Shown: one piece after another, positions 3,168-32,827 of the stretch
Layout of the letters: each line of letters starts with the position of its first letter
Position numbering within the stretch: position 1 is the stretch's first letter
Assembly (NCBI GenBank): GCA_038831915.1
Contig: JAWBKB010000011.1
Location: 8,696-50,810, forward strand
DNA from: Candidatus Caldarchaeum sp.
GTDB taxonomy: Archaea > Thermoproteota > Nitrososphaeria_A > Caldarchaeales > Caldarchaeaceae
Direction: 5' to 3'
DNA: 42,115 bases
Program-made: the position numbers and the translations under genes
Notes under the pieces: model-generated
Seen by the model: the letters and a program-made list of their open reading frames with translations, nothing else
The model's database searches: none
What the model was told of the DNA's origin: nothing

Positions 3168-4321
3168 AGATTCTTGCGCCAAATTACATACCAGAGAACC
3201 CACCACCAAATTACTGCAACTAGGAATTTCGCTAATAGACGCGTCGAATGGTCAAACAAGGCAAGCGTTTCGACTACTTCAGGCCATAGAAGGTATAGTT
3301 GTTGGGGGATGGCGAAGTTGACGCCGGCGAAAACCAGTGGAATGACCCATAGCAAACGTGTCGGAAGACGGTTTGAAATGACGATTAATAGAGCATGGAT
3401 GATGATTAGGTTTTGTTCGGAAACCCACGGCCTGACCGTGAAAAACAGCGAAGCCGAAAACAGTCCCAGCCGCGCGATACCATCCACAGTTGTGGGCGGA
3501 AAAACCACGCCGATAAAAATAGCAAGAAGTATCGCGAAAACCGACAGGTATCCAACGGCCTGAAATGTCTCAGGCAGGACCGGGCTGTTGTAAAAATATT
3601 CAACTAAGTTCATGATGGAAATTCCGCCGGCTGGTTTGAACCAGTTGACGAAGCCGTTCAGGACGGTTTCCAAGGGCCAGCCAAACGCGGCGAAAGGAAG
3701 GAAAAATAAGAGCGTCGAAAATGTTACGGTATAGATTATTGTTTTCATGTTTCGCAGCCATGCACAGATGAAGGCCGGGGCCATCGCCACGGCTAACGGC
3801 TTCACCATCAGAGAAACTGAAAGGTTTAGCGCTTTGTGGCTGCCGTAGAGCGCCAAAAGAGCCAGCAAGGCGGCTATGTTGTCAGGCTTCCCCCAAACGG
3901 CTGTGACCAGCAGCAAGAAAGGGTTGAACAGAAAAAACCGATAATCGCCGTTCCTCATCTTGATGAAATAGCTGAGAAACAGGTTCGCCGCAATTATCGG
4001 AATCTTCAGCAGGATGTTGAAGACAAATATCTGACCTGATGAAAGAAAATAAGCCGCTCCCGTGTAAAGGGCCCATAACGGTGTTTCTCCTATTCCCTGC
4101 ACGTAGCTTCCATATCCAGATGCCAAAACATCTTCCACGAACCCGCCTTCGTAAGGCGAAGAACCGCAGACGATGTTCCGACCGGCCACATAACTGACCT
4201 GAAAATCATACCCGTGAGCCAGAAACAAACCCAAAACAACCTGAACAAAAACAGAAACAACAACTTCCCGCCGTCTAACAAACATTAGAAAATCATACCT
4301 GGCAACGCGGCGGTTTTCCAA
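3149..4321 (-). CDS. GT-C fold membrane glycosyltransferase (GT87/PIG-M/DUF2029-like)
   Basis: Polytopic protein with early-loop Asp (HGYDF) and motifs LKIPIIAANL, FLFNPFLLLVTAVWGKPD, SLMVKP, typical of lipid-linked-sugar transferases. Confidence 0.75.
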   Translation of the reverse strand: MENRRVARYDFLMFVRRREVVVSVFVQVVLGLFLAHGYDFQVSYVAGRNIVCGSSPYEGGFVEDVLASGYGSYVQGIGETPLWALYTGAAYFLSSGQIFVFNILLKIPIIAANLFLSYFIKMRNGDYRFFLFNPFLLLVTAVWGKPDNIAALLALLALYGSHKALNLSVSLMVKPLAVAMAPAFICAWLRNMKTIIYTVTFSTLLFFLPFAAFGWPLETVLNGFVNWFKPAGGISIMNLVEYFYNSPVLPETFQAVGYLSVFAILLAIFIGVVFPPTTVDGIARLGLFSASLFFTVRPWVSEQNLIIIHALLIVISNRLPTRLLWVIPLVFAGVNFAIPQQLYLLWPEVVETLALFDHSTRLLAKFLVAVIWWWVLWYVIWRKNLWRWMR

Positions 4322-4424
4322 GACATTTCACAAGTCAGGGCCAGACATTTTTAAAGGCTTCTCAATCGCATAACCTTAAACAGTCTAAACGAAGGAAATA
4401 ACAGGAGCTATTTCAGTGATTTTT

Positions 4425-5453
4425 CTAGACCTGTTCGACCCATTCGCCGAGCTTGTTGAGGTCTGTGTGGCCTTGGGGCGGCATTCCGATCAACAACGGT
4501 GGGGAAAGCGGCTTTCTTAACCAATAAATGTTATGCATAATGATTGTGGGAAGAAGCCATAAAAGATTCAACACCATCATTCCATCGGCGGAAACGACGC
4601 CGCTTAGATTTGTCGACCAAACACCGGAAACGAACAACACCGCGACTATTGTTGCTATTCCTCTTTTTGGCTGTCGAAATCTCAGTGTCAGCGGATACGC
4701 CATCGACCATGACAAGACAACTGACCAAAGAATTACGCTGGAGAAGAATCGTAACGCAGTTTCCGAGAAAAATTGTTGCGAACTCGTGAGGTACATGATT
4801 AGAAGCGTGGGTATCGATGTCGTGGCTATGATTGCGAGGCCGATTTTCGGCTGGCGCCATAGTGACGTGAAAGGACATCCCTGCAAAACGAAGGGTGTTG
4901 AAAAGATTAGCGTCAACCCAAGGTTTGAAACTGTCAATACATGCAAGTTATCGATGTTGAGAATGTTTTGAAGAGGTATCGTTGCCGAAACGCTGATAAT
5001 GATGCTTGTTACAACCGCTATTATGAGACCTTTTTTAGGTTCGGCATGATAAAGCGGCCATCCGGACATTACAATCCCCCACACTATTAATATCCATAGG
5101 AAAATCACTGCGAAGAAACTAGGGTTGAAGATGGTTGCTGCATGCGATACCCAATACGTGGTGGCGGCCGCTGCAAGAGTTAAAATAGTCATTGCTGCGC
5201 CGGCTTTCAACGTGTTGTTTGTAAAGTTACCGCACGGAGGCGAGTAGGGCCATCCACGGCCCGTCGTAGTGAAAAGAATCAGCCACGCCGCGACCAAAGC
5301 TAGAAAATCTCGGAAATTTGTCAAGACATTGTTGAACACGATTCCCAACATAGCAAACACGGTTAACTGAAGCAGTGATTCCAACCGATACCTTACGTTG
5401 AAATCGTTCCACGTTTTCGAACCTACTCCGATTGCTCTCATACAACAGTTCAC
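4425..5453 (-). CDS. Polytopic membrane protein with internal repeats, putative transporter
   Basis: About 10 TM segments; repeated GWP/GCP/AYP...(Q/E)PKxG units; last gene of the minus-strand catabolic run; exact start uncertain. Confidence 0.7.
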   Translation of the reverse strand: MNCCMRAIGVGSKTWNDFNVRYRLESLLQLTVFAMLGIVFNNVLTNFRDFLALVAAWLILFTTTGRGWPYSPPCGNFTNNTLKAGAAMTILTLAAAATTYWVSHAATIFNPSFFAVIFLWILIVWGIVMSGWPLYHAEPKKGLIIAVVTSIIISVSATIPLQNILNIDNLHVLTVSNLGLTLIFSTPFVLQGCPFTSLWRQPKIGLAIIATTSIPTLLIMYLTSSQQFFSETALRFFSSVILWSVVLSWSMAYPLTLRFRQPKRGIATIVAVLFVSGVWSTNLSGVVSADGMMVLNLLWLLPTIIMHNIYWLRKPLSPPLLIGMPPQGHTDLNKLGEWVEQV

Positions 5454-5456
5454 CGC

Positions 5457-6287
5457 TCATTCAATATGCTCGATTAGGTCGTCGACGTTTCTGACCGTTA
5501 AGTCGGCCTCCCCGTTAGCGTTTCTTTCCCATCGTTGAACACTCGACACTAAAACCGTTGTTATCCCCAGCGAATGGGCTGGAGCTATGTCCGCTTCATA
5601 GGAGTCTCCAACCATCACAGCTTCATCGGGCTTTATCTTCAGTTGGTTAAGCACAGTTTGATAATGGATGAGGCTCGGCTTACCGACAACTACTGCTTCA
5701 CGTCCAGTCTGATATTCCAGGCACTGAACGATCGCGCCCGGTGAAAGACATGGTCCATGATTTGGCGAATAATACCATCTGACCTTGTTAACGGCTAGAA
5801 AGTAGGCTTCTTTATTGTTGATTGCTCTTAAAGCCGCTGTGAGTTTTTTGAAGGAGATTGCTCTATCATGTCCGACTACTACTGCTTCTGCTTCTCTCCA
5901 ATTACTCGTAAGACGATGTCCGTGTTTGACCAGCTCTGCTTTCAAACCCTCTTCGCCGACTACGAGACACTTTGTTTTTCCAAGTTTTTCTCTTAGGTAA
6001 TGTGACGCGACTCGCGAGGCGAGCCACAGTTGTTCGATTGTGATCATGAATCCTAATGAACGGAAGTATGACCATGCTTCGTTTGTGCTCCAGTTTGAGC
6101 CGCTTCCCAGAAGAGCGTAACTGATACCTTTTTTCCGGAGACGAGAGAACAAACGGTAGCCTCCTAGCACTCTTGTTTCCCATTCCATCATACCGGTGAG
6201 TAGAACGCCGTCGATGTCGAAAAGGAACAGTTTTTTGTCTTTTAAATTAATCAGTGTAAACCCCGAGGAGGACTTTCCCGTTTTCAA
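5457..6287 (-). CDS. HAD-superfamily subfamily IIA phosphatase (NagD/CreD-like)
   Basis: Motif I FDIDGVL, VVGKPS, MVGDSYEADI. The real start may be near 6254, since the first ~11 codons overlap the upstream gene. Confidence 0.9.
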   Translation of the reverse strand: MKTGKSSSGFTLINLKDKKLFLFDIDGVLLTGMMEWETRVLGGYRLFSRLRKKGISYALLGSGSNWSTNEAWSYFRSLGFMITIEQLWLASRVASHYLREKLGKTKCLVVGEEGLKAELVKHGHRLTSNWREAEAVVVGHDRAISFKKLTAALRAINNKEAYFLAVNKVRWYYSPNHGPCLSPGAIVQCLEYQTGREAVVVGKPSLIHYQTVLNQLKIKPDEAVMVGDSYEADIAPAHSLGITTVLVSSVQRWERNANGEADLTVRNVDDLIEHIE

Positions 6288-7200
6288 CCTTCACTGGAAA
6301 TGTTGCTATAGGCCGTGCCAGCCCATGATGAGGCTGGGTTAGAACTCTGCCGCTTCTAACGTCGAACTTCGCAAGATGGTCGATGCATGACACTGAGTAG
6401 GAATCGATGAAGCCATCGTGCAGAAAGCCTCCTTCGTGCGTGCATAAGTTTTCAACGGCGAATATTTTGTCCATGGTGCTGACGAGAAGCACCTCCATCC
6501 ATCCATTCAATAGTATCAATTTCTTTCTGCTGGCAAGCAGCTCATTTACGTCGCATACGGGAATCCATGATTTGGGCTGACGTGTCTCCACGCCTTCATG
6601 TGGGAAAATCCCCATGGACAGTGGCAAAATAACGTTGAGCAACCTTAACGAGGGTTGAAAGATGTCAGGTTCCTTCACGTATCTGCCTATGAAGTCTTCC
6701 ATGTACGTGTTGTAGTCGTCGTCCCTTTCTATGATCGGTAGTAAAAGCTCACGCACTTGTCTGTCGTCCATGTAAAAGACTGCCGCCCTCGCCGCGGTAA
6801 CGATGAAGCGTAAAACCGCTCTGCAGGCAGCGAGTAGGTCTGCCATATTTTCCGCTTCCTTTAAACTTTCTAGATACGCTTCGTAAGCTCGTTGATTGTG
6901 CTTCGGCCTGTTATCGGTTTTGATTTCAATCAAGTTGCAGAATTGTCGTCTGTATTTGGTGAGGTATGTTAGAAGCTTGCCGAGCCTGTCGTAAAGATAC
7001 GGGTCGTCGGCGACTTCCTTCGCGTCCACACTCGCATGCATCAAACAGTAGATGACGTATTCCAGCATTGTAAGGACGTTTTGGACGCAGTTCCACGCCT
7101 GCCGCTGGTCTCGGCCTTTGAACACCGAGGAATAGGCGTTCCAGACGAGTGCTTCAAAGTCTTCCGTACGGACTTCTGTTATGATGGGTTTTTGGGTCAT
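6247..7200 (-). CDS. Fusion of a ligand-less ferritin-like helical domain and a C-terminal Rieske [2Fe-2S] ferredoxin
   Basis: C-terminal CTH-x16-CIDH Rieske motif with FAVENLC and FDVRSG...P. The N-terminal ~200 aa aligns by eye with the neighbouring di-iron protein but lacks its ExxH motifs. Confidence 0.8.
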   Translation of the reverse strand: MTQKPIITEVRTEDFEALVWNAYSSVFKGRDQRQAWNCVQNVLTMLEYVIYCLMHASVDAKEVADDPYLYDRLGKLLTYLTKYRRQFCNLIEIKTDNRPKHNQRAYEAYLESLKEAENMADLLAACRAVLRFIVTAARAAVFYMDDRQVRELLLPIIERDDDYNTYMEDFIGRYVKEPDIFQPSLRLLNVILPLSMGIFPHEGVETRQPKSWIPVCDVNELLASRKKLILLNGWMEVLLVSTMDKIFAVENLCTHEGGFLHDGFIDSYSVSCIDHLAKFDVRSGRVLTQPHHGLARPIATFPVKVENGKVLLGVYTD

Positions 7201-7895
7201 AGCGCGTGTGCTTGTGAAAGTTCCACTCGTTTTCTCCGGGCTTTATCTATGGTCGGCAACGTGTATTTCTCTGTTATCTCTAAAACGTCTTTCCGAGCTT
7301 CCGCCGTGGTGCATAATTTTAGCCATGTCCGTTCGGCGATTGACCAGTGGAACAATTCGTCATCGAGAAGCTCTCTAAACACAGCCCTTATCTCGGGATG
7401 GTTTTCGCCAGCCCCATCTTCAACTCCTCTATGATGGCTGACGCTGGTCCATTCTACGACTTGTAGAACGGATGTAAACCTTAGCTGGAAGAACTTTGGA
7501 TTTTCGAGGGCGAGTTTGATTGGTAGTTCGAAAACTTGAACCCATTCCTCCATGGGCTTGAAATTGTCCATGTTTCCTCCATATTTTTTCAAAAGTCTAT
7601 GACGTAAAAGCCAGTGTCTCGCTTCGTCTGACACCTGCCTAGCAAACAACGGATAAAACTCTGGGTCAACGTATTCCGCATAGCTTCGCACAAGCTTGGC
7701 TACGACAGCGGCGGCAGCCCATTCATTCCAAGTTCCCTGCCTAAGCCAGGAAATAATGGACCCCGTGTCAGCTGTTTTGATCCAGTCGCGTCCATATCTA
7801 TAGTGTTGTTCAAAGTGGTGCTGATTGATTCTCTTAAAATATTCTACGAATTCGTGCGGGGTCATGTTCTCAAAATCGACGCCCATCAAGCCCAC
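7197..7895 (-). CDS. Ferritin-like di-iron carboxylate protein, putative oxygenase catalytic subunit
   Basis: Complete E...ExxH...E...ExxH ligand set: WNEW, DEARH, VVEW, DELFH; 4-bp overlap with the Rieske-fusion gene; start GTG 7895 or ATG 7886. Confidence 0.85.
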   Translation of the reverse strand: MGLMGVDFENMTPHEFVEYFKRINQHHFEQHYRYGRDWIKTADTGSIISWLRQGTWNEWAAAAVVAKLVRSYAEYVDPEFYPLFARQVSDEARHWLLRHRLLKKYGGNMDNFKPMEEWVQVFELPIKLALENPKFFQLRFTSVLQVVEWTSVSHHRGVEDGAGENHPEIRAVFRELLDDELFHWSIAERTWLKLCTTAEARKDVLEITEKYTLPTIDKARRKRVELSQAHAL

Positions 7896-7908
7896 CTTGA
7901 TGAACGCA

Positions 7909-7934
7909 CCGATGTATCGGATATAAGCGTTTTG
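7909..7934 (-). promoter_or_regulatory. Internal BRE/TATA promoter with an adjacent palindrome upstream of the di-iron gene
   Basis: Minus strand reads AAAACG-CTTATAT-CCGATACATCGG: TATA about 30 bp from the start codon, followed by a CCGAT-n2-ATCGG inverted repeat at 7909-7920. Confidence 0.5.
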
Positions 7935-7938
7935 TGTT

Positions 7939-8244
7939 TTACATTTTTTGGGGCAAGCCTCGGCCGTAGCCTATCTTCGCGATTTGTTCTCTTGAAGGCC
8001 ACTCGCCGAAGGCTTGCCAAACGAGTGCGAAGATTATGTATGGTTGAACTCCCATGTCATACATCTCGACTCCGTCACGGGACATGACGAGTTTTCTTTC
8101 CTCCTCTGATAGGCCGAATTCGTTCATGACGTTTTCGGGGTCTTTTTGAAATCTTTCCCTGAGTTCTGGGCTTCTTGAGATGCTGTATCCGAGCTTGTGG
8201 AGCTTTAGGAATTTAAGCGGTGGATATCTGAACACGATGGTCAT
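7939..8244 (-). CDS. ligA: Extradiol ring-cleavage dioxygenase small subunit (LigA-like)
   Basis: PELRERFQKDPENVMNEFGLSEEERKLVMSRDGVEMYDMGVQPYI is a LigA-type signature; ATG 8244 follows a GAGGTGA RBS; adjacent to ligB. Confidence 0.8.
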   Translation of the reverse strand: MTIVFRYPPLKFLKLHKLGYSISRSPELRERFQKDPENVMNEFGLSEEERKLVMSRDGVEMYDMGVQPYIIFALVWQAFGEWPSREQIAKIGYGRGLPQKM

Positions 8245-8248
8245 GGTT

Positions 8249-9070
8249 TCACCTCTCGAACCAGACAACTGAATAACCGTTGTTCCAGGCCTTCCAGTAA
8301 TGAAGAATTTCGGTCGAAGATGCGGAATAGGCGGCTGCTGCGGCCAGCCAAGAACCTAATTCGTGATTTCCGGTTGCGTCAAGCCAGTCATAGTCCAAGT
8401 CAGTCAATTCCAGGAACTTGCCGTGTTTTAGCTTGTCGATGATGTAGAGGTCGGCTTCCTCATCAACGTTCCCATAATATGGTGTGCCCGGATAATGTGA
8501 CAAACCTCCTGTTCCAACGACGAAAACCTTCTCTTTCCTTTTACTCTTTTCTATGATTTCACCGACGGCTTTTCCGAGGCTATAACATCTCTGGAGCTTG
8601 ACCCTTGGATGAACATTTGTGTTGACATGGAATGGAATTACTTTGACGTCTGGTTTCTTGAATTCCTGCAGCAACCAATAAACAGGCACCGTGAACGGAT
8701 GGTCAAAGAAATCCACTTCCTGCATGAACCCGACGTCAAACCCTGCATCCACTAAGCCGTAGAGTATTTCTTCAGCGAGTTCGTGATGATTTTTTAACTT
8801 CATAATCGTCTTGCCCGCAACTGCGTAGTTGCATTCATCGCCGGTGAAAATCATCATCTGTGGGAAGCAGCCGAACCAAAAAGTCTGGACGTGGTCAGCT
8901 CCGAAAACAAGCAACACATCAGGCTCAAGCTTGTTAAGCCGCCTACCAATCTCTTTCATCGCGTTCCTAATTTTTTCCATTTCGCTGACATACTGCTCCG
9001 TTTCCTGCCAAGGCAATTTGTAAACGACTGGTGAATGAGGCCCTGCTGCAGCGCCAACTATTTTACCCAT
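8249..9070 (-). CDS. ligB: Class III extradiol dioxygenase catalytic subunit (LigB family)
   Basis: GPHSP, FGADH, FDHPFTVP, GTGGLSHYPG, GNHE metal and catalytic motifs. Confidence 0.88.
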   Translation of the reverse strand: MGKIVGAAAGPHSPVVYKLPWQETEQYVSEMEKIRNAMKEIGRRLNKLEPDVLLVFGADHVQTFWFGCFPQMMIFTGDECNYAVAGKTIMKLKNHHELAEEILYGLVDAGFDVGFMQEVDFFDHPFTVPVYWLLQEFKKPDVKVIPFHVNTNVHPRVKLQRCYSLGKAVGEIIEKSKRKEKVFVVGTGGLSHYPGTPYYGNVDEEADLYIIDKLKHGKFLELTDLDYDWLDATGNHELGSWLAAAAAYSASSTEILHYWKAWNNGYSVVWFER

Positions 9071-9115
9071 GTCAATCCGCCTCCCGCAAAACGGGAATAA
9101 TAATTTTGCATCAAC

Positions 9116-9904
9116 CTATATCATGGAGACTAAATCGTCGACGTTGTTAACGATTATGTCTGGTTTTACACCGCTTTTCTCGACATCCTCAAGCTTTGAG
9201 ACGCCTGTTAGTGCTAGGGCGGTTTTCATGCCGAGGTTTTTGGCGGGCAGTAGGTCGTTGACCAATTCATCGCTAACCATCAGCGCTTCAGCCGGCTTCA
9301 CTCCCAGCTTTTTCAAACCCATTTCATAGATGATGTTTGACGGTTTCCCGATTATGGTTGCGACTTTGTCGGAAGCGTATTCCAGCGCCCTGACGATGGG
9401 CCCCACCGATATTGTTTCCCCTGCTTTTTCAGGTATTCTCTTAGACGCGTGACATCCTATCAGCTCAGCGCCTTGTCTTAGGAATGCGAGAGCTTTGTTT
9501 AGCTTCTCGTAGGTGAGCTCTCTGTCTAAACCTACCACCACAAAGTCGGGCCTTTCCACATTTTCATTGACGATTGTATGGGAATATTTCGCAAGTTCTT
9601 CTTTCAGCCCCTTCTCACCCAAAACCCAGACCTTGGTTTTTCCATATTTTTCCCGTAGATACATCGCCGTAGCCTGACCGGCGGAAAGAATTTCTTCCAA
9701 CTTCAACGGCAGGCCTAGTTTGGTCAGCTCTTCCAAAATTTCCTCGTTCAGCTTTGTGGCATTCGTCAAAACCAAGATTTTCATTCCTCTCTCCCTTGCT
9801 TGATTGATTAGCCGAACACCGCCGATGAGCGTCGTTCGTCCCTGCTGGTCCCTCGTAGTTAAAGTTCCTTGCACATCGAGCAGTATGGCTTTTACGTCGC
9901 TCAA
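9116..9904 (-). CDS. HAD-IIA family hydrolase with a variant motif I (DVQGT)
   Basis: LDVQGTL, LTNAT, IIGKPS, MVSDELVNDL, LTGVS; TTG start after a GTGA RBS. Confidence 0.88.
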   Translation of the reverse strand: MSDVKAILLDVQGTLTTRDQQGRTTLIGGVRLINQARERGMKILVLTNATKLNEEILEELTKLGLPLKLEEILSAGQATAMYLREKYGKTKVWVLGEKGLKEELAKYSHTIVNENVERPDFVVVGLDRELTYEKLNKALAFLRQGAELIGCHASKRIPEKAGETISVGPIVRALEYASDKVATIIGKPSNIIYEMGLKKLGVKPAEALMVSDELVNDLLPAKNLGMKTALALTGVSKLEDVEKSGVKPDIIVNNVDDLVSMI

Positions 9905-9911
9905 GGTTTCA

Positions 9912-10838
9912 CTACTCTTTCACTACTCTGTTACGGAGCAGGCCTAGTTCAGTGATTTCAGCTTCGACCACGTCTTTGTCTTTGAGATATTCTTTACCCG
10001 CTGCGGCCACGCCTGCTGGAGTTCCAGTCGCGATGATGTCCCCCGGCTCCAAAGTAATTCCATCCGACAGGTACTCGATGAGGTCGCCGATTTTGTGATA
10101 CATGTCCCGTGTGTAACCATCCTGTCTAACGTCGCCGTTCACCCTAAGCGTTAGTCTAAGCGAATAAGGTGAACTCACTTCATCCTTCGTAACCAGATAT
10201 GGGCCGCACGGAGCAGCGCTGTCCAACCCTTTTCCATGTATCCAATTCTGTCCAAACGGGTTTAGTTGCTGCGGCCATCCAGGCGGAAACTGCTTATCCC
10301 TGAAGCTAACGTCGTTAAAGACGGTGTATCCTGCTACGTATTCCTCGGCCTTGTCACGTGGAATGTACTTTCCTCTTTTACCTATAACGACGGCCAGCTC
10401 AATTTCATAGTCGACCTTGACAGAGGTTTTAGGTATCAAAATGCTGTGTTCATGACCGATGAGTGTGTTGGTGAATTTGCTGAAGAAATAGGGCTTTTCG
10501 GGAACTTTTATCGTCATTTCCTGGCTGTGTGCAACATAGTTTGCCGCAACACAGAATATTTTCTTGGGGTCGGGAACCGGAGGTTTGAAGATTACCTCGT
10601 CGACACTGTAGAAATGAGGCTTTACTTTATCAAGCCCTTTAGCCTCTTTAGCCAGTCTTTCAACGAGCGGAAATGAATGTTCGCTGGCCGCTAACAAGCT
10701 CCGCATCGATACTAGCCAACTCGGGACATGGTCATCACCATAAACACTTTGGTAAACCGAGGCCATGTCGACAACCATTCCGTCTACTAAAAGACCCACT
10801 CGGTCGACACCGTTGTATGAAAAAGTCAGCAATCGCAA
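9912..10838 (-). CDS. Fumarylacetoacetate hydrolase family protein (hydrolase/isomerase/decarboxylase)
   Basis: KIFCVAANYVAH, FFSKF, VDYEIELAVVIGK, GYTVFNDVSFRD, GKGLD, LEPGDIIATGTPAGV. Confidence 0.93.
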   Translation of the reverse strand: MRLLTFSYNGVDRVGLLVDGMVVDMASVYQSVYGDDHVPSWLVSMRSLLAASEHSFPLVERLAKEAKGLDKVKPHFYSVDEVIFKPPVPDPKKIFCVAANYVAHSQEMTIKVPEKPYFFSKFTNTLIGHEHSILIPKTSVKVDYEIELAVVIGKRGKYIPRDKAEEYVAGYTVFNDVSFRDKQFPPGWPQQLNPFGQNWIHGKGLDSAAPCGPYLVTKDEVSSPYSLRLTLRVNGDVRQDGYTRDMYHKIGDLIEYLSDGITLEPGDIIATGTPAGVAAAGKEYLKDKDVVEAEITELGLLRNRVVKE

Positions 10839-10874
10839 CGTTAACTCACCAACGCATCCCGCTTTTGCAGGAAG

Positions 10875-12164
10875 TTATAAATTTTCAGCCAAATTAATTT
10901 TCGCCTTTCTACGTGTTCTAACTTTTGCAACGACTCTGGCGGGCGCGACCTCTGAATTTTTTATGTTGATGGGCATAGCGTAAACCGTTACCTTCTTCCC
11001 CGCGATGCGTGACATGTCTCCCAGATTTTCGATTATCAAGACATCGTTTTGAAGAAGTGTTTTGTGAACTTGTTTTTCTCCGCTGCGTTCCGGGTTCGGC
11101 ATGTCGATGCCAAATATCTTAGTTTCTTTCTCTACCAGCCATTCGGCAAATTCCACGTCGACAACAGGATGTGCATAATATTTCGGCTGACCTAAGTATC
11201 TGTTCCAACCGGTGTAGACAAAGACAATCCAACGAGGGGGAAGGTAATGCCTGTCGAGCAGTTTTTTCGCCCATTCAAGAGTTATGACATCGTCAGACGA
11301 GGAGCATTCCATGTTTAAAACAATGCATTTACCGATGAACAAATCAGGCGGATATTCGTCTATTGTTTTCCCGTTCGGGAAAAGCAGGGACGGTGTGTCA
11401 AAATGCGTGAAAACTTTTGTGGGTTTGTTGTCTGATTCACGGATTTTAGAAAGGTTAACTTGGCTGAAATCTTCGGGAGCCGGTGGAATTGTCAAGTCGT
11501 AGTAGGAATTAGCCCTTAATTTGGAAATTTCTGGCATATCTGATTTTGAAATCTGTTCGATGTACGTCCGGAGTTGCTGAACGGTCCATTCCTGCGTGAC
11601 CAACTGCTTAAAAGTTTGACGTTGCAAAGCTGGGTCCCGTAATTTAAGTAGATACAATAGGTGGAGAAGCCCTACTTTCCTATCGGTAGGAAGATTCCTA
11701 TACTCTTCTATCACGTCATGGGGAAGTTTGAGTAGTTCAACCCGGTTGTACACGTATTTTGGGTTGATTCCCAAAAGTTTGGCCAGTTCGTCGTATGATT
11801 TCCCCGTTCTTTTAACCCAGAAATTGAAATATTCGGCTTCCTCTAGCGGGTCTCTATCCTTTCTCAGCATGTTCTCGATTGCACATTGAATGATGACTTC
11901 GTCGTCACCAAGTTTATCTACGATGCACGTTATTTCCTCTACGCCGGCAAGTTTGGCGGCTTCAAACCGTCTTCTACCCCAGACAAGCTCATAGAAACCA
12001 TCCTGCGAAGGTCTGACTTTTACGGGAACGTCGACATCGCTCCTCTGTTTGATGGATTTCGCCAGTGAAACAAGATCTCCCAAATCTCTACGGTCCGGAA
12101 GCCAGGGGATTGTTTTTATTTTCTTCACGGGGATTCTCTGAATTTTTGGAAAAAAATCAGCCAT
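10875..12164 (-). CDS. ParB-like CTPase/HTH protein fused to a C-terminal cyclase (kynurenine formamidase-like) domain
   Basis: N-terminal: LAKSIK..PVKVRP..YELVWGRRRFEAAKLAG, IENMLRKDRDPLEEA, HTH SYDELAKLLGINPKYVYNRVELLKL. C-terminal: THFDTP..GKTIDEYP..FIG, YTGW, FGIDMPNP, VHKTLL..DVLIIENL, APARVVA. Confidence 0.85.
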   Translation of the reverse strand: MADFFPKIQRIPVKKIKTIPWLPDRRDLGDLVSLAKSIKQRSDVDVPVKVRPSQDGFYELVWGRRRFEAAKLAGVEEITCIVDKLGDDEVIIQCAIENMLRKDRDPLEEAEYFNFWVKRTGKSYDELAKLLGINPKYVYNRVELLKLPHDVIEEYRNLPTDRKVGLLHLLYLLKLRDPALQRQTFKQLVTQEWTVQQLRTYIEQISKSDMPEISKLRANSYYDLTIPPAPEDFSQVNLSKIRESDNKPTKVFTHFDTPSLLFPNGKTIDEYPPDLFIGKCIVLNMECSSSDDVITLEWAKKLLDRHYLPPRWIVFVYTGWNRYLGQPKYYAHPVVDVEFAEWLVEKETKIFGIDMPNPERSGEKQVHKTLLQNDVLIIENLGDMSRIAGKKVTVYAMPINIKNSEVAPARVVAKVRTRRKAKINLAENL

Positions 12165-12316
12165 GGTACCGTTGTCTCATTTGCTTTGTATATACTTTTT
12201 GCAAGTACCGGCCGACACTTGAGACAACGTACATGACCATTAGCGAGAAGCTTTTTCATCATTGTTGTGGTAAGAAAAAAATTTATACAATTTATTGCCG
12301 AATCGGGTGAGAGTTT
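12165..12316. promoter_or_regulatory. Divergent promoter region of the aromatic island
   Basis: Minus-strand BRE/TATA (AAAAAGTATATAC, ~12188-12200) about 25-30 bp before ATG 12164; plus-strand AAGAAAAAAA-TTTATA (12272-12287) about 30 bp before ATG 12317; GGGTGA RBS at 12305-12310. Confidence 0.7.
12170..12229. repeat. Perfect 10-bp inverted repeat (CGTTGTCTCA / TGAGACAACG) with a 40-bp spacer
   Basis: 12170-12179 and 12220-12229 are exact reverse complements, extendable with gaps to flanking GTAC/CATG; the pair brackets the TATA box. Confidence 0.75.
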
Positions 12317-14152
12317 ATGGTTCAGCAAAACAGGTTTCCGTTCGCTTACGAGGTCGAAACGCCCAAAGGAGCCGAAGGATGGGAAAAGATGTATCCCTAT
12401 TACTATGTTTTCGACAAATCTCCTGGGCAGAGACGGGATTGGGAGTCGAGCGTGTTTTGGTTCCAGGACGGGATGCATCATGGTGAGCCGCTGTATCCGT
12501 TGGACGCCATACATCCGATGGCATGGCAGTGGGCCCTATCCTCATACAACTCAAGGACTTTTGTCGTGCCGCCTGCCTTGGGAATAGCTCACAGAGTTCT
12601 GAATGGCTATCTCTACATCACACCAGTGCCGGTCACCGACCCTAACGAAGTAGCAAAACGCGTGGAATATTTCAAGAAAAGAGCCGGCTACTACTATCAG
12701 AATTGGAACAAGATTTTCGAAGAATGGAAGCAGAATGCCGAGGAAATAATCAAAGAAATGGAGGCTCTCGAATTCAAAGATTTGCCGGAAATAGAGGACG
12801 AAGAAGTCGTCTTCAAGCATCTCGGATTGTCGCGAAGCAGCTTCACGCTATACGACAACTTCCATAAACTTGTGATGCTTCATTTCAGGCTTTGGCAGAA
12901 ACATTTCGAAATGCTGAACCTTGGTTACGCGGCGTACCTAACATTCTATCTATTCTGCAAGGAAAAATTCCCCGCAATAGCGGACCAGCACATCGCACGA
13001 ATGGTCGCAGGAATAGAAAGCATACTCTTTAGACCAGACCAGGAATGCCGGAGGCTTGCGAGACTCGCCGTGGACTTCAAACTGGAGTCGATATTTTTGA
13101 AGAGGTTGGGTTACAGCAAGACAGTTGAAGAGCTCGAGAAAAGCAGCAACGGAAGAAAATGGCTCGAAGAGCTCGAGAAATCGAAGTATCCTTGGTTCTA
13201 CTACGCCACGGGTCCCGGATTCTACCACACCGAACCTCGTTGGATTGACAACATGGATATCCCCTTCACCTTCATCACTGATTACATCGAGAAAATCCTG
13301 AAAAACGAGCCAATAGAGCTGCCCACTGAGAAACTTAGGAGAGAAAGAGAAGAACTCGCCGTTCAGTACAAATCGCTGCTCAAAGACCCCGCTGACGTTA
13401 GAACATTTGAGGAGAACCTACAGCTTTCGAGAACCGTTTTTCCCTATGTGGAAGACCACAACTTCTACATAGAGCATTGGGGACACACGATATGGTACAA
13501 GAAGGTCAGAGAAATAGCCAGGATACTGGTGAAGAACGGAATAATAAACCGGGAAGATGATATTTTCTACATCAACTGGCACGAGCTCAGCCAAATACTG
13601 TATGACCTTTGTGCGAACTGGGCAGTCGGCGTCAAACCAGTGGCGACATATGGATGGCCGGCCGAGATAAGCAGAAGACGGCAAATTATCGAAACGGTTA
13701 AGCAGAACAGGCCGCCGCCGGCTTTGGGCAAACCTCCGGAAGTGATAACTGAGCCGTTCACCATCATGCTTTGGGGAGTAACCAAAGAAAGAATTAACCA
13801 GTGGCTTTCAGGTGCTATGGCTGGAGCTGAGAAAAAGCTAGTTGGGCTGCCTGCTTCGCCTGGAGTCGCTGAAGGCCCTGCCAGGATAGTGTTGAACGCA
13901 GAGGACATCGTCAACGTAAAGGAAGGCGAAATTTTGGTTGCACCCATTACGGCACCAGCATGGAACCCCGTCTTTCTCAAGATTAAAGCCACTGTAACCG
14001 ACATCGGCGGAATAATGTCTCATACAGCCATCGTCTGCAGAGAATACGGGCTGCCGGCAGTTGTAGGCACAGGTTTCGCAACCAAGATGATCAAGGATGG
14101 ACAAAAACTGAGAGTCGACGGAACCAACGGAGTAGTGGAAATCATTGACTGA
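12317..14152 (+). CDS. Phenylphosphate synthase alpha-subunit-like protein (substrate-binding region plus phospho-His swivel domain; PpsA/CreH-like)
   Basis: GAEGWEKMYPYYY, FWFQDGMHHGEPLYPLD, LSSYNSRTFVVPP, RAGYYYQNW, HFEMLNLGYAAY, VEDHNFYIEHW match my recollection of Thauera PpsA. The PEP-mobile motif TDIGGIMSHTAIVCREYGLPAVVG places the His at residue 569 (codon 14021). No pyruvate-binding barrel. Confidence 0.85.
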   Translation: MVQQNRFPFAYEVETPKGAEGWEKMYPYYYVFDKSPGQRRDWESSVFWFQDGMHHGEPLYPLDAIHPMAWQWALSSYNSRTFVVPPALGIAHRVLNGYLYITPVPVTDPNEVAKRVEYFKKRAGYYYQNWNKIFEEWKQNAEEIIKEMEALEFKDLPEIEDEEVVFKHLGLSRSSFTLYDNFHKLVMLHFRLWQKHFEMLNLGYAAYLTFYLFCKEKFPAIADQHIARMVAGIESILFRPDQECRRLARLAVDFKLESIFLKRLGYSKTVEELEKSSNGRKWLEELEKSKYPWFYYATGPGFYHTEPRWIDNMDIPFTFITDYIEKILKNEPIELPTEKLRREREELAVQYKSLLKDPADVRTFEENLQLSRTVFPYVEDHNFYIEHWGHTIWYKKVREIARILVKNGIINREDDIFYINWHELSQILYDLCANWAVGVKPVATYGWPAEISRRRQIIETVKQNRPPPALGKPPEVITEPFTIMLWGVTKERINQWLSGAMAGAEKKLVGLPASPGVAEGPARIVLNAEDIVNVKEGEILVAPITAPAWNPVFLKIKATVTDIGGIMSHTAIVCREYGLPAVVGTGFATKMIKDGQKLRVDGTNGVVEIID

Positions 14153-15185
14153 CTTCTCATACATACTACCTGCCGAACGCTGCGACAAAAATGTTTTAAG
14201 ATTGGTCGGAGGAAAAGCCGCTTCGTTAGGCGAAATAGTAAAAGCAGGATGCCCTATACCTTCATTCTTAACAATCACGTCTGAAGCCTACCGGAGATTC
14301 ATCGAATACAACAAAATGCAACCTTTGATTGTGAGCTTGGAGAATGCAAGCACAGATGAAGAAATTGTAATGGTCTCAGCTAAGATAAGAAGACATATTC
14401 AAAACGGCAGTTATCCACAGAACCTCGAGCAAGAGCTCAGGATTGCTTACCGAAGATTTTGCAGTTCATGGGGTCCTCTGGCCGTTAGGTCGAGCGCAAC
14501 TTTGGAAGACGCACCGGGCGCCAGCTTCGCAGGCCAGTATGACTCGTATCTCGGCGTCAGAACAGAGGAAGATTTCCTCCACTACGTTAAAAAATGCTAC
14601 GCAAGCCTATACACCGACAGAGCGGCGTCCTACCGGCACAAGCTCGGCCTGCCGCAGGACAACGTCGCCATGGCCGTGGTTATTCAAAAACTCGTCAAAG
14701 CGAGGTCGGCCGGAGTTATGTTCACGCTTAACCCGCTCAACGGCGACCCCTCGGTCGCGGTAATTGAAAGCAGCTGGGGGCTGGGGGAGGCCGTCGTCAA
14801 GGGAGAAGTGATTCCAGACAAATACGTTGTGAACAAAATCACGAAGGAAATTGTCGAGTCCAAGCATTCACGCAACAAACCTGTGAAGTACGAGATGATG
14901 GATGACGGCTCCGTGAAACGCATCGCAAATTCAACCGATAACTCAAGCCTTAGCATCAACGAAGAAGAAGCTGTTAAGCTTGTCGAATATGGTTTGCGGC
15001 TGGAAAAATACTTTCACAGACCACAGGACATCGAATGGGTCGTGGACAAGGATTCAAACATATTTCTCGTCCAGAGCAGACCTGTTACAGTTCCTACAAC
15101 TGTCGACAGACCATCGAAACAGAGCAACATAGTAGATACGCTCGACCGAGTTGTTGCATCACTTTTAGCCGGTGTGAAAACATAA
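14145..15185 (+). CDS. Phenylphosphate synthase beta-subunit-like protein (stand-alone PEP-synthase ATP-grasp domain; PpsB/CreI-like)
   Basis: VGGKAASLGE, AVRSSATLED..ASFAGQYDSYL, MAVVIQKLV..AGVMFT, SWGLGEAVVKG, PQDIEW, VQSRP; TTG start overlaps the ppsA-like stop. Confidence 0.88.
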   Translation: MTDFSYILPAERCDKNVLRLVGGKAASLGEIVKAGCPIPSFLTITSEAYRRFIEYNKMQPLIVSLENASTDEEIVMVSAKIRRHIQNGSYPQNLEQELRIAYRRFCSSWGPLAVRSSATLEDAPGASFAGQYDSYLGVRTEEDFLHYVKKCYASLYTDRAASYRHKLGLPQDNVAMAVVIQKLVKARSAGVMFTLNPLNGDPSVAVIESSWGLGEAVVKGEVIPDKYVVNKITKEIVESKHSRNKPVKYEMMDDGSVKRIANSTDNSSLSINEEEAVKLVEYGLRLEKYFHRPQDIEWVVDKDSNIFLVQSRPVTVPTTVDRPSKQSNIVDTLDRVVASLLAGVKT

Positions 15186-15402
15186 AGTCCTCCACGGACC
15201 TATGCGTGAAACAGTCCCTCTCAGGACATAGTAGATGGACACCATCCAGATTCAGTTGGCTGCGCATCTAATGTGAATCAAACATACATGCATTAGTATA
15301 GGTTTCTACCAAAGCTGTCGAATGGCTAGCACATCACTTCTCGAAGAATCGAGCAAACCTCGACCGTATGAAATACTCGAACGTGAGGGGGTTGTCGCCG
15401 GG

Positions 15403-21619: not shown

Positions 21620-21658
21620 GTTTCTGCCCTGCTCTGCTACGGCCTTGACTAAAAAGTT

Positions 21659-26436: not shown

Positions 26437-26461
26437 GTAAAATATATGGTGGTGTTGAATA

Positions 26462-28627: not shown

Positions 28628-28631
28628 TTCA

Positions 28632-30152: not shown

Positions 30153-30169
30153 CGCAAACCACTAAATCC

Positions 30170-30179
30170 AATAAAAAAG
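30170..30179 (-). terminator. Possible intra-operon oligo-T terminator after the substrate-binding gene
   Basis: Minus strand CTTTTTTATT about 14 nt after the BMP stop and before the ATPase start. Confidence 0.4.
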
Positions 30180-30192
30180 TGGGGTTGGTTGT

Positions 30193-31389: not shown

Positions 31390-31408
31390 ATTGCTAAGAT
31401 GCTGTTTG

Positions 31409-31422
31409 TATATTTAAATATA
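31409..31422. promoter_or_regulatory. Palindromic TATA element between divergent genes
   Basis: TATATTTAAATATA is a perfect 14-bp palindrome about 20-33 bp upstream of GTG 31389, consistent with a leaderless transcript. Confidence 0.55.
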
Positions 31423-31490
31423 GTGGACGTGTTCAACCATGTCTTCCGTTGGTGGTTTCTTCGATGTCTGATGCTTGAAAAAGCTAAACC

Positions 31491-32738: not shown

Positions 32739-32827
32739 AACCATTTTCATTATGATGGGGACGCAAATCGGCACAGCACCATTTTTAATAATATACTTAT
32801 ACCAGCTGGCGATAGTATCATAAGAAT

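Follow-up and report, generated by a model that had tools for sequence, protein, structure and literature searches.

We found a conserved gene cluster in the hot-spring archaeon Candidatus Caldarchaeum sp. that we read as an archaeal variant of the aerobic phenolic catabolism that begins with phosphorylation, here using an uncharacterised di-iron/Rieske oxygenase. The cluster lies at positions 4425-16251 of the window, the whole 42,115-nucleotide stretch of DNA that was analysed, and we give about an even chance to this region being a single catabolic unit for O2-dependent phenolic breakdown whose upper pathway runs via an aryl-phosphate intermediate. The initial annotation had called the pathway undescribed. 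This is too strong, given the Hpe system, which has a NagD-type phosphatase, and the Cre system, which has a P450 (PMC9618137, PMC12167813), and given an Aigarchaeota LigAB operon published in 2016 (PMC4681859). The features are as follows.

4425-5453, minus strand: polytopic membrane protein, 342 aa, without a Pfam or NCBIfam match
5457-6287, minus strand: second HAD-IIA (NagD-type) phosphatase, 276 aa, TIGR01460 113.6 bits
6247-7200, minus strand: helical domain plus Rieske [2Fe-2S] ferredoxin domain, Pfam Rieske 5.9e-11
7197-7895, minus strand: di-iron-type helical-bundle protein, 232 aa, with invariant ligand motifs
7939-8268, minus strand: LigA small subunit, 109 aa, PF07746, E 6.8e-12
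8249-9070, minus strand: LigB catalytic subunit, class III extradiol dioxygenase, 273 aa, PF02900, E 2.5e-33
9116-9904, minus strand: HAD-IIA (NagD-type) phosphatase-like protein, 262 aa, TIGR01460 126.4 bits
9912-10838, minus strand: FAH-family enzyme, HpcE/HpaG-like, 308 aa, PF01557 FAA_hydrolase, E 6.5e-69
10875-12164, minus strand: ParB_N + HTH_ParB + Cyclase fusion, 429 aa, Pfam 3.2e-13 / 1.3e-11 / 5.8e-21
12165-12316, no strand: divergent intergenic region between the ParB-cyclase and PpsA-like genes, with an inverted repeat and TATA-like boxes
12317-14152, plus strand: PpsA/CreH/HpeH-type dikinase alpha subunit, 611 aa, PF00391, NF006153
14145-15185, plus strand: PpsB/CreI/HpeI-type ATP-grasp subunit, 346 aa, PF01326 PPDK_N, E 1.6e-94
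15403-16251, minus strand: alpha/beta hydrolase, 282 aa, PF00561, E 1.3e-30

An ORF check of the window confirmed all listed ORFs at these coordinates, which are those first assigned. The earlier gene calls also gained Pfam/NCBIfam support, except for the "transporter", a membrane protein that fits no known family. Gene spacing is tight, with overlaps of 4 bases between the Rieske-fusion and di-iron genes (7197-7200), 20 bases between ligA and ligB (8249-8268) and 8 bases between the PpsA-like and PpsB-like genes (14145-14152).

In the pathway that we propose, the split dikinase (611 aa + 346 aa) would use ATP to phosphorylate a presumably phenolic hydroxyl via a phospho-histidine, and the di-iron protein, with the Rieske domain in its fused partner as electron donor, would oxidise the aryl phosphate, most likely by ring hydroxylation next to the phospho-oxygen. 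One or both of the NagD-type HAD-IIA proteins would remove the phosphate to leave a catechol-type diol, by analogy with HpeD. LigAB, whose family and active-site residues are observed, would carry out extradiol ring opening, and the HpcE-like FAH enzyme would process the ring-fission product, a stage at which a second archaeal lineage also has an aldehyde dehydrogenase. Substrate import may fall to the membrane protein, and the ParB-cyclase fusion, placed beside the divergent promoter, is the probable regulator of the unit. We infer the phenolic substrate, the action of the oxygenase on an aryl phosphate and a trap-or-protect rationale for the phosphate. In the Hpe pathway, the closest characterised homolog of HpeD is NagD and the middle enzyme takes the phosphorylated substrate only (PMC9618137). 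The present pair shares its kinase family with Hpe, and HpeD is NagD-type like both HAD proteins here, whereas Cre uses a P450 and the present genome has a candidate di-iron/Rieske oxygenase instead.

The PpsA-like protein has a substrate-binding region and a phospho-histidine swivel domain (PF00391 PEP-utilizers, residues 535-605), keeps the catalytic-His motif GGxMSH as GGIMSH, and scores 892 bits with NF006153 against a cut-off of 578. Over its full length (residues 3-610) it is 47% identical to PpsA of the Thauera aromatica pps-ppc cluster, and a domain search found no PEP/pyruvate-binding domain in it. In the PDB, the PpsB-like protein matches PEP synthases in their ATP-grasp parts, 5fbs/5hv1 and one 387-aa chain; 5fbs/5hv1 are presumably rifampin phosphotransferases. 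Judged by sequence, the pair is a true two-component small-molecule dikinase of the aryl-dikinase family; the split of domains, the motif, the model score, the identity to PpsA and the missing PEP-binding domain agree with the family placement made initially. Since HpeH and CreH act on different substrates at 46% identity, the 47% identity to PpsA does not fix the substrate of the kinase.

The initial annotation had noted that the window holds no carboxylase or P450 and had called for a genome-wide search for UbiD. Neither UbiD nor P450 genes were found in the window or in the 95.6%-complete genome that contains it (G000). UbiD was likewise not found in two related genomes, G015 (88% complete) and G044 (66%), and it is absent from the clusters of the second lineage, family f14, where UbiD genes elsewhere in the genome are over 100 kb distant. 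In G005, which is of the same genus, a 477-aa Ppc-like UbiD, sharing 49% identity with one from the Thauera pps-ppc cluster, lies directly upstream of PpsAB in the cluster, together with HAD and NUDIX genes, which shows that a carboxylating branch exists in a close relative. A hybrid route, from phenol via phenylphosphate and 4-hydroxybenzoate to protocatechuate, made by the di-iron/Rieske pair and then cleaved by LigAB at the 4,5-position, would fit these upstream genes and also the best solved relative of LigB, a protocatechuate 4,5-dioxygenase. We consider this route improbable given the distribution of UbiD: the cluster gene was found in one of the five carrier genomes searched, and none was found in G000, searched besides, so the carboxylase is an add-on.

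The two HAD-IIA proteins both pass the TIGR01460 cut-off of 100.15 bits and differ in their motifs. The protein at 5457-6287 has the canonical DIDGV (DVHGV in all three of its f14 orthologs), and that at 9116-9904 has the variant DVQGT, in which Asp+2 is replaced by Gln, as it is in 6/6 archaeal orthologs examined. Lacking the Asp+2 general acid/base, the latter may, from its sequence, be something other than a plain phosphatase. A good aryl leaving group would need no general acid in HAD hydrolysis, and in the phenylphosphate carboxylase of Thauera the HAD subunit cleaves phenylphosphate to an enzyme-bound phenolate. The phosphate could thus be an activating leaving group: aryl-phosphate cleavage by a HAD-IIA protein would take place on or near the di-iron enzyme, with no phospho-diol released, and either activated oxygen would attack the phenolate as it forms or an ipso/ortho epoxide would collapse and shed the phosphate. 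In favour of this, a HAD gene accompanies UbiD and Pps in the Thauera locus (annotated here as ppsA-ppsB-CBS-UbiD-HAD-UbiD-UbiD-UbiX), in G005 and in 9 of the 80 bacterial loci compared. HAD-IIA adjoins the PpsA-like gene in 13 bacterial loci, and since UbiD is present in 9 of these 13, HAD-IIA beside Pps can mean carboxylation rather than protection and deprotection. The leaving-group mechanism is also favoured by the invariance of DVQGT and the likeness of the adjoining alpha/beta hydrolase to epoxide hydrolases. However, two distinct conserved HAD-IIA paralogs fit free-standing phosphatases equally, and the G005 locus lacks the hydrolase, as do the f14 loci as far as examined; we regard the leaving-group mechanism as unlikely.

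That hydrolase, which probably belongs to the unit, follows PpsB in three of four related clusters (G000, G015 and G044). Its motifs are HGWP and GFDVG, which we take to mean an Asp at the nucleophile elbow and, together, an epoxide-hydrolase/dehalogenase-like enzyme; with haloalkane dehalogenase models it reaches about 71 bits, below their cut-off.

The initial annotation had asked whether Pps, di-iron/Rieske, LigAB and HAD-IIA genes recur as neighbours, and the outcome is strongly positive: they do so in two archaeal lineages with differing gene orders. In a sample of 401 genomes from the phylum, nine have PpsA-like genes (E<=1e-60) and eight the di-iron gene, and all eight fall within the nine. 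The di-iron, PpsA-like, LigAB and two HAD-IIA genes are linked in seven genomes (split across contigs in G356), although the carriers represent only two or three independent lineages. G000, G005, G015 and G044 have the same genes in four arrangements, fully collinear in G005. In family f14, a single locus in G233 and G085 contains PpsA (57-58% identity), PpsB (43%), both HAD-IIA types, di-iron paralogs (41-48%), Rieske, LigAB and aldehyde dehydrogenase; FAH (52%) is in the G233 locus and was not found in that of G085. A 7.8-kb contig of G356 has PpsA (56%), PpsB, both HADs and FAH (50%), with the di-iron genes on a separate contig. On G233 L113, a PpsA paralog (8583-10331), a 104-aa Rieske gene (10312-10626) and a di-iron gene (10623-11426) overlap end to end.

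These data largely refute a chance neighbourhood between an ordinary LigAB aromatic operon and a kinase pair with some other role. Of 76 genomes of the class, 10 do have LigB-family genes, and six of these 10 have neither the di-iron nor the Pps genes (the di-iron gene is in 4 of the 76), and the two gene sets lie on opposite strands in the window, but the complete co-occurrence of di-iron with PpsA-like genes, the adjacency that persists across gene orders and the overlapping genes in f14 make coincidence very improbable. The di-iron and Rieske proteins co-vary with the kinase and the two phosphatases, together forming an upper-pathway module, and LigAB also occurs without them. Weak evidence for the unit comes from a metatranscriptome run, in which contigs match stretches of the Rieske, di-iron, PpsA, PpsB and hydrolase genes at 99% identity or more; this is contig evidence only, and carried-over DNA is a possible source.

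The di-iron protein belongs to a very rare, uncharacterised family (only 26 proteins at E<=1e-3 among 1.84 billion representatives) and is, from its sequence, the presumed catalytic subunit of the oxygenase. Its invariant residues are one Glu (E58), two ExxH motifs (E91xxH94, E180xxH183) and an HH pair (H154/H155). No curated Pfam or NCBIfam threshold was passed; the sole Pfam match is Rubrerythrin at 17.3 bits, below the cut-off of 22.8. Foldseek with its AF2 model (pLDDT 93.6) gave weak matches (best E 6.6e-3, TM 0.63-0.65) to PqqC/TenA/BesC/CADD/DPS-like/MiaE bundles, with HrmI among the best, so the oxygenase call rests on the ligand motifs and the Rieske neighbour. In the Rieske fusion (AF2 pLDDT 92.5), residues 1-205 form a helical domain of no known family with six invariant Arg, and residues 211-312 form the Rieske [2Fe-2S] ferredoxin domain, whose PDB matches are Rieske ferredoxins of ring-hydroxylating dioxygenases. 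A complex prediction weakly supported the pairing of the two proteins (0.41, the median of 0.88, 0.41 and 0.40; best control 0.00); 58 of 80 solved complexes reached the pass mark, as did 2 of 110 mismatched pairs, and passes at 0.60 or under comprise just 7 of the 80 solved complexes, yet both passing mismatches. Contact agreement between runs was at least 0% and the pLDDT of the Rieske partner at least 86. No ferredoxin reductase was found among the cluster genes.

The fold neighbours PqqC, TenA, BesC, CADD and HrmI of the di-iron protein are biosynthetic or salvage enzymes, and the cluster contains a formamidase-like cyclase domain. Both would suit a hydroxylated N-heterocycle or aminophenol-type substrate, or a biosynthetic or detoxifying unit, with the kinase assisting oxidation. 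A PEP-utilising pair of this kind is reported to be essential for 3-hydroxypyridine conversion in Ensifer, where a phospho-intermediate was not detected (bioRxiv 10.1101/2020.01.08.898148). An Aigarchaeota LigAB operon, possibly the same one, was described in 2016 with a Rieske protein and a hypothetical protein that was very highly transcribed in situ, the substrate then being unknown (PMC4681859). We nevertheless hold such a role to be doubtful: LigAB, HpcE-like FAH and, in f14, aldehyde dehydrogenase together form a lower pathway of the classical meta-cleavage type, the fold neighbours are matched weakly (E >= 6.6e-3), and the cyclase domain, in which one His of the motif is lost, is joined to a ParB DNA-binding part.

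LigB, the only one in the genome, matches protocatechuate 4,5-dioxygenase beta best in the PDB (8.9e-20), and its H12, H60, H192 and E237 align with conserved positions. The best PDB match of the FAH enzyme is 1gtt, HpcE (1.4e-47), and this gene is kept in 4/4 Caldarchaeales clusters (60-72% identity) and in family f14 (50-52%). Aldehyde dehydrogenase, hydratase and aldolase genes are absent from the window, where the lower pathway is therefore incomplete.

The membrane protein (4425-5453) has at least six hydrophobic stretches, and its nearest structural neighbours are uncharacterised membrane proteins. It is a possible permease, with homologs in the G005, G015 and G044 clusters (30-42% identity); as it belongs to no known family, the description "transporter-like" is unproven.

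In the ParB-cyclase fusion, residues 7-210 match Spo0J/Noc/KorB in the PDB and the C-terminal part matches MJ0783/kynurenine formamidase, with the last His of the aligned THxDxPxH motif changed to Leu. Besides being the probable regulator of the cluster, it is possibly also an enzyme. Cluster-linked orthologs are present in G015 (61%) and G044 (56%), with none in the G005 cluster. The intergenic region upstream of it contains a perfect 10-nt inverted repeat (12170-12179 / 12220-12229) flanking a 13-nt palindrome; conservation of the repeat does not extend to G005, G015 or G044. TATA-like A+T-rich boxes lie about 25-30 nt upstream of both divergent start codons.

Nine tightly packed genes occupy the minus strand between 12164 and 4425, and a pair of kinase-like genes runs divergently from 12317 on the plus strand. 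The gene identities and coordinates proposed in the initial annotation were borne out by the ORFs and by Pfam and NCBIfam matches, apart from the call of a transporter-like gene. The genome that carries the window (G000) comprises 1.59 Mb in 34 contigs and is 95.6% complete (95.58%).

Features of the cluster, in window coordinates.
10875-12164, minus strand: fusion of ParB_N, ParB-HTH and cyclase domains (Pfam/NCBIfam)
Next along the minus strand: FAH-family enzyme (Pfam/NCBIfam)
9116-9904, minus strand: HAD-IIA protein of 262 aa (Pfam/NCBIfam)
Next along the minus strand: LigB (Pfam/NCBIfam)
Next along the minus strand: LigA (Pfam/NCBIfam)
Minus strand: helical protein of 232 aa, with a sub-threshold Rubrerythrin match only
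Minus strand: protein of 317 aa, the last 100 residues of which form a Rieske ferredoxin domain (Pfam/NCBIfam)
Minus strand: second HAD-IIA protein, of 276 aa
Next along the minus strand: membrane protein of no family in Pfam, NCBIfam or Atlas
12317-14152, plus strand: protein of 611 aa with a C-terminal PEP-utilizers swivel domain (NF006153, 892 bits, cut-off 578)
14145-15185, plus strand: PPDK_N ATP-grasp protein of 346 aa (Pfam), its gene overlapping the preceding one
15403-16251, minus strand: alpha/beta hydrolase, after the kinase genes

The two plus-strand proteins show the split architecture of a two-component dikinase. PF00391 lies at residues 535-605 of the 611-aa protein (alpha), PF01326 matches the 346-aa neighbour (beta) with an E value of 1.6e-94, and the two genes overlap by 8 bases. 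The catalytic motif sought, GGxxS/C-H-A/T-A-I within about 50 residues of the C terminus, was found in the alpha protein as GGIMSHTAIV (residues 564-573), and its H569 is conserved without exception across the 24 aligned homologs. A Ser before the catalytic His, as seen here, is reported for PpsA and CreH, and PpsAB, CreHI and HpeHI are treated as one subfamily of two-component phenolic dikinases (PMC12167813). A scan of species-representative genomes gave 597 confirmed PpsA-like relatives, of which the best 80 were retained; among these 80 is the classical phenol cluster of Thauera aromatica, in which ppsA and ppsB are accompanied by a CBS-domain gene, three UbiD genes with a small HAD gene after the first, UbiX and NUDIX. 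Aligned along almost their entire lengths to this Thauera pair, which comes from a strain other than that of the biochemical work, the alpha protein shows 47% identity (residues 3-610) and the beta protein 39%. Judged by sequence, membership of the kinase pair in the PpsAB/CreHI/HpeHI dikinase family is solid. Family membership does not fix the substrate, because HpeH and CreH are 46% identical and yet act on different phenols (PMC9618137, Table 1). A kinase pair of this type is also reported to be essential for the conversion of 3-hydroxypyridine, in which no intermediate was detected (bioRxiv 10.1101/2020.01.08.898148).

That the pair might instead be the PEP synthase of the cell was considered and rejected, since the PEP/pyruvate-binding domain is absent (TIGR01418 matches only positions 2-337 in beta and 354-456 in alpha) and a separate 893-aa PEP-utilising ORF is present on contig 6, where TIGR01418 positions 146-773 are matched in three stretches, including 590-773. 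The place of the alpha protein among its relatives was examined in a quick maximum-likelihood tree of 91 rows, which is midpoint-rooted only and carries no conclusion on the direction of transfer; its characterised anchor is the Thauera-type clade only, with CreH and HpeH not included, and the rows of G015 (gene split over two contigs), G044 (split over two loci) and G291 were left out. The window protein pairs with its ortholog from G005, a genome of the same genus, with a support of 100. This pair falls outside a clade of 83 rows (82 bacterial rows and the archaeal G220), and those Pps genes that have UbiD and CBS neighbours group in an inner clade of their own, outside which the window protein also lies.

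The 232-aa protein passes no curated family threshold (its Rubrerythrin score is 17.3 bits, under the cut-off of 22.8) and has no sequence match to a solved structure at E<=1. Its residues E58, E91xxH94, E180xxH183 and H154/H155 are invariant across all 10 sequences compared, and the AF2 model is an all-helical bundle with a pLDDT of 93.6. Foldseek comparison of this protein to solved folds gave weak matches (best E 6.6e-3, TM 0.63-0.65) to a mixture of heme-oxygenase-like and ferritin-like proteins, namely PqqC, TenA, BesC, CADD, DPS-like proteins, MiaE, FlcD and HrmI, and remote relatives score weakly with DUF455, AurF, Haem_oxygenas_2 and Rubrerythrin, mostly below cut-off. The family is small and essentially uncharacterised: 11 members turned up when 5.8 billion proteins were searched by word index, and a full profile search found 26 at E<=1e-3 among 1.84 billion representatives. 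The cluster offers this family its first functional context.

The gene for the 232-aa protein overlaps that of the Rieske fusion by 4 bases. The first 205 residues of the fusion are helical, belong to no family and contain six invariant Arg. When the fold of this domain was searched, Foldseek returned matches to the Rieske domain only, hhalign against the di-iron family found no match (probability 0.2), and the Atlas feature search gave values of 0.77 or below, to unnamed clusters. Complex prediction for the 232-aa protein and its Rieske partner gave a score of 0.41 (runs of 0.88, 0.41 and 0.40), compared to 0.00 for the best control, with a partner pLDDT of at least 86 and agreement between runs in at least 0% of contacts. 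Of 80 solved complexes, 58 reach the mark applied to such scores, as do 2 of 110 mismatched pairs, and the passing scores of 0.60 or below came from only 7 of the 80 solved complexes and from both passing mismatches; the result lends weak support to the predicted complex. Comparable enzymes are the toluene-4-monooxygenase type, in which a multicomponent di-iron oxygenase is supplied by a Rieske ferredoxin, and the heme-oxygenase-like di-iron oxidases BesC, CADD and HrmI. The window resembles these in encoding a helical bundle with Glu/His di-metal motifs beside a Rieske [2Fe-2S] carrier; it differs in that the Rieske domain is fused to the 205-aa domain, and no effector protein or Rieske reductase was seen in the cluster. 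Since family and structure matches are lacking and the fold matches and the complex score are weak, it is by reasoning rather than by family assignment that we infer a di-iron oxygenase with a Rieske electron donor.

The initial annotation had named the recurrence of the gene combination in other genomes as a check on its proposal, and the combination of kinase, di-iron/Rieske genes, LigAB and HAD-IIA does recur, rearranged, in two lineages. Among 40 close relatives, an ortholog of the kinase alpha gene was found only in G005 and in G015, which belongs to another genus, and the di-iron gene is present in 4 of 76 genomes of the class (G000, G005, G015 and G044). In all four, the kinase pair, FAH, both HAD-IIA types, LigAB, the di-iron protein, the Rieske fusion and the membrane protein occur together; the four clusters have four different gene orders, that of G005 being fully collinear. 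Of 401 genomes sampled evenly across the phylum, nine have PpsA-like proteins (E<=1e-60) and eight the di-iron protein (E<=1e-10); each of the eight belongs to the nine. The ninth genome is G220, in which PpsAB adjoins UbiD and an AMP-forming ligase; this arrangement is the anaerobic layout.

The second lineage is family f14; protein matches of this kind carry the source name Pyrobaculum. Its genomes G233 and G085 encode PpsA (57-58% identical), PpsB (43%), orthologs of both HAD-IIA types (42-52%), LigAB, an aldehyde dehydrogenase and further phosphatases of the HAD-IA and IMPase families. Their di-iron paralogs number two to four, they have Rieske genes of 104-110 aa that stand alone, and an additional PpsA paralog, 37% identical, keeps the catalytic His. 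G233 also has FAH (52%) and a Rieske fusion of 323 aa with 28% identity along its whole length, and a short contig of G356 carries PpsA (56%), PpsB, both HAD genes and FAH (50%). At one f14 locus (L113, 7846-11426), the genes for an IMPase-family protein, a PpsA paralog without PpsB, a small Rieske protein and a di-iron protein overlap in a single run. The carriers are kin and amount to two or three independent lineages, and the counts are not to be taken as statistics. Because the genes have been rearranged and yet retained together, their distribution is strong evidence that the kinase, the phosphatases and the oxygenase work together. The same kind of IMPase/PpsA-paralog/Rieske/di-iron run was also observed at L114 (11465-16374) and L108, with up to four di-iron paralogs per genome.

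Both HAD proteins score above the TIGR01460 cut-off for HAD-IIA, the group to which NagD belongs. In motif I of HAD enzymes the first Asp is the nucleophile and Asp+2 is the general acid/base. The feature DxDx(T/V) is present in the 276-aa protein as DIDGV, and its f14 orthologs have DVHGV; the 262-aa protein has DVQGT and lacks the feature. This change of Asp+2 to Gln is shared by 6 of 6 archaeal orthologs examined (L014, L016, L021, L113, L114 and L116), while DxDG is kept in 12 of the 13 bacterial HAD-IIA neighbours of PpsA-like genes among the best 80 of 597. Going by HAD enzymology, the loss of Asp+2 points to a chemistry other than ordinary phospho-ester hydrolysis; possible readings would be that the substrate has a good leaving group, that hydrolysis is gated, or that the phosphoryl group is transferred. 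A HAD-IIA-like neighbour is present in 13 of the 80 PpsA-like loci (again the best 80 of 597), one bacterial locus having the order AMP-ligase, UbiD, HAD-IIA, PpsB, PpsA. Since 9 of these 13 loci also have UbiD, a HAD gene beside Pps can belong to a carboxylase.

For ring cleavage, LigB matches PF02900 with 115.7 bits (cut-off 26.3) and LigA matches PF07746 with 45.8 bits (cut-off 25.3). H12, H60, H192 and E237 of LigB, the predicted Fe(II) ligands and catalytic His, align with the conserved His/Glu of LigB, MhpB and gallate dioxygenase. The FAH protein matches PF01557 with 232 bits and HpcE (1gtt) at 1.4e-47. The specific NCBIfam equivalog models all stayed far below their cut-offs for LigB (best 112 bits vs 290), and the specific FAH models were likewise all under theirs. 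The cluster shares with LigAB meta-cleavage pathways (protocatechuate 4,5-cleavage and the homoprotocatechuate hpa/hpc pathway) the active-site residues of LigA plus LigB and an HpcE/HpaG-like FAH protein; the hydratase, aldolase and lactonase of such pathways were not seen in the window cluster, and the f14 clusters add an aldehyde dehydrogenase, as in LigAB-type lower pathways. LigB-family genes occur in 10 of 76 class genomes, 6 of which have neither Pps nor di-iron genes. This wider spread fits a scheme of two parts, in which an upper module (kinase, oxygenase and phosphatases) feeds a more generic lower module.

The alpha/beta hydrolase at 15403-16251 follows PpsB in 3 of 4 Caldarchaeales clusters. 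As a hydrolase of the meta-cleavage product it was rejected, since it has Asp and not Ser at the nucleophile elbow; this residue and an HGWP motif point to a candidate epoxide hydrolase or dehalogenase rather than to hydrolysis of a ring-fission product.

To our knowledge, aerobic catabolism of aromatics that begins with phosphorylation is described to date from bacteria alone, for the Cre and Hpe systems. The Hpe/Acv systems of Rhodococcus rhodochrous GD02 and Sphingobium (HpeHI kinase, HpeCBA carboxylase and HpeD phosphatase) are, like the window cluster, aerobic and begin with a two-component dikinase of the same family. The carboxylase, their middle enzyme, is reported to take only the phosphorylated substrate (PMC9618137, PMC12167813), and HpeD, of which NagD is the closest characterised homolog, removes the phosphate after this step (PMC9618137). 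In the window, too, a NagD-type HAD protein is paired with the kinase, HpeD being compared here by its description. Unlike Hpe, whose biotin-dependent carboxylase acts on the side chain, the window has a di-iron/Rieske protein as its proposed middle enzyme, two HAD-IIA paralogs (one with DVQGT), an archaeal host and LigAB for ring cleavage directly after the unit. In the Cre system of Corynebacterium glutamicum, also aerobic, a phenol is phosphorylated, the aryl phosphate is oxidised with O2 and the product is dephosphorylated (PMC12167813), the enzymes being CreHI, the P450 CreJEF, CreG, CreC and CreD (PMC8796525). Cre oxidises a methyl side chain by its P450 (CreJ), whereas ring hydroxylation is proposed for the window.

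The Thauera system PpsABC plus PpcABCD resembles the window in its kinase pair and in being accompanied by a HAD-type protein and NUDIX, and differs in being anaerobic and in having a UbiD-type carboxylase and the CBS-domain PpsC. The initial annotation had noted that the window holds neither carboxylase nor P450, and wider searches agree. UbiD (PF01977) was not found in G000 and gave no tblastn match in the window; P450 (PF00067) was not found in G000 by a search that gave matches in control genomes; and no biotin-carboxylase/carboxyltransferase domain was detected by Pfam in the 34 window ORFs. Nor did tblastn with the Thauera CBS protein give a match in the window or at the archaeal loci searched. 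UbiD was found within the cluster only in G005 (contig C14, L014, 6253-10055), where a 477-aa UbiD, 49% identical to that of the Thauera pps-ppc locus, lies directly upstream of PpsAB; the upstream extras of this cluster also include a PEP-mutase/isocitrate-lyase-family gene, a 236-aa HAD gene and NUDIX, and the ParB-cyclase gene is missing from it. Searches of G015 and G044 gave no UbiD, and the UbiD genes of the f14 genomes lie far from the cluster.

Because Cre and Hpe have been described, the oxic principle of phosphorylating, transforming and dephosphorylating is already known, and the initial annotation's description of the pathway as undescribed goes too far in this respect; its family memberships and the linkage of the genes stand. 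What is new is the oxygenase, the direct coupling to LigAB and the archaeal setting, and our literature searches found no paper linking a Pps-type kinase to LigAB in archaea. Taken together, the cluster is probably one functional unit for the O2-dependent catabolism of a phenolic compound via an aryl phosphate. For the order of steps within it, from the kinase to a di-iron oxygenase acting on the phosphorylated form and on to HAD and LigAB, we see an even balance of likelihood.

A bolder extension, which we think improbable, would make the di-iron protein, together with its Rieske partner, the founder of a new family of arene oxygenases specific for aryl phosphates and confined to thermophilic archaea, in which the phosphate would serve as recognition handle and leaving group and the six Arg of the partner would be candidate binders. 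In the same extension, PpsA paralogs without PpsB would recycle the phosphoryl group from product to substrate, as HpeH does in vitro, thereby saving ATP, and the DVQGT HAD would be a phosphotransferase or a gated phosphatase. HpeH alone is reported to catalyse phosphotransfer between aryl phosphates and phenols (PMC12167813), and the PpsB-less paralogs of the second lineage, whose genes overlap the Rieske and di-iron genes, keep the catalytic His. Why ATP is spent on a phenol before its oxidation is a question that could be tested with the two HAD variants and the extra kinase paralogs.

ParB_N-HTH-cyclase fusions occur in 12 of 76 class genomes. A paralog 38% identical to that of the window (10875-12164) was observed in G004 (contig C2, L118, 15119-16357), in another aromatic-type cluster that holds LigAB and two UbiD genes and has no Pps, HAD-IIA or di-iron genes; this suggests a role for such fusions in aromatic gene clusters, either regulatory or enzymatic. 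In the interval that separates the two divergent start codons, at 12170-12229, a perfect 10-nt inverted repeat surrounds a 13-nt palindrome and is a possible operator; the 10-nt repeat is not conserved in G005, G015 or G044. A protein with an AbrB/MazE-type N-terminal domain (304-348 aa) was seen in 3 of 3 f14 clusters examined (L113, 18177-19223; L114, 3779-4693; L116, 1600-2607), and may be the regulator there in place of the ParB-cyclase fusion.

DNA nearly identical to the window occurs in hot-spring metagenome runs, one of which (X5) contains 97% of the sampled words. In the metatranscriptome X7, 21 contigs at least 99% identical to the window cover parts of the Rieske, di-iron, HAD/FAH, PpsA, PpsB and hydrolase genes; stretches free of contigs (3000-6156, 7961-8411 and 10667-11568) say nothing about expression. 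These data are contigs that cannot rank genes, and RNA libraries may contain DNA; they hint only weakly at transcription of both divergent operons. Aerobic catabolism of aromatics in archaea is poorly known. In an aigarchaeon of an oxic hot spring, an operon with LigA and LigB (_01094-_01099) is reported as very highly transcribed, its substrate unidentified (PMC4681859). The terms "phenol" and "PEP synth" are absent from the main text of that paper (PMC4681859). The operon may be the unit described here, which might then explain that observation. If confirmed, the unit would extend the phosphorylation-first strategy to thermophilic archaea, with a different middle enzyme, and a possible use lies in thermostable tools for making or using aryl phosphates.

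The surroundings of the cluster were also inspected. At lower coordinates (1115-2494 and 2478-4321), a B12-binding radical SAM protein (459 aa) stands beside two membrane proteins, one of 243 aa with weak, sub-threshold DoxX/MauE matches and one of 390 aa with no family. By tblastn, these three were not found at the related Caldarchaeales and f14 loci searched, and a homolog of the radical SAM protein (35% identity) was found only at the separate G220 locus, about 3 kb beyond PpsB. On the other side, a complete operon of Rad50, an Mre11-like phosphoesterase, HerA and NurA, the proteins of archaeal DNA-end resection, directly adjoins the cluster at 16456-22972; this operon identifies the host as archaeal. 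Close protein matches carry the source name Candidatus Caldarchaeum sp. The region 25159-41883 is rich, on both strands, in nucleoside/purine-type functions, with two Bmp/PnrA-type ABC uptake systems, two amidohydrolases, an AllH-domain protein and a 770-aa molybdopterin subunit of the xanthine-dehydrogenase type, and is probably an island of purine or pyrimidine salvage or catabolism.
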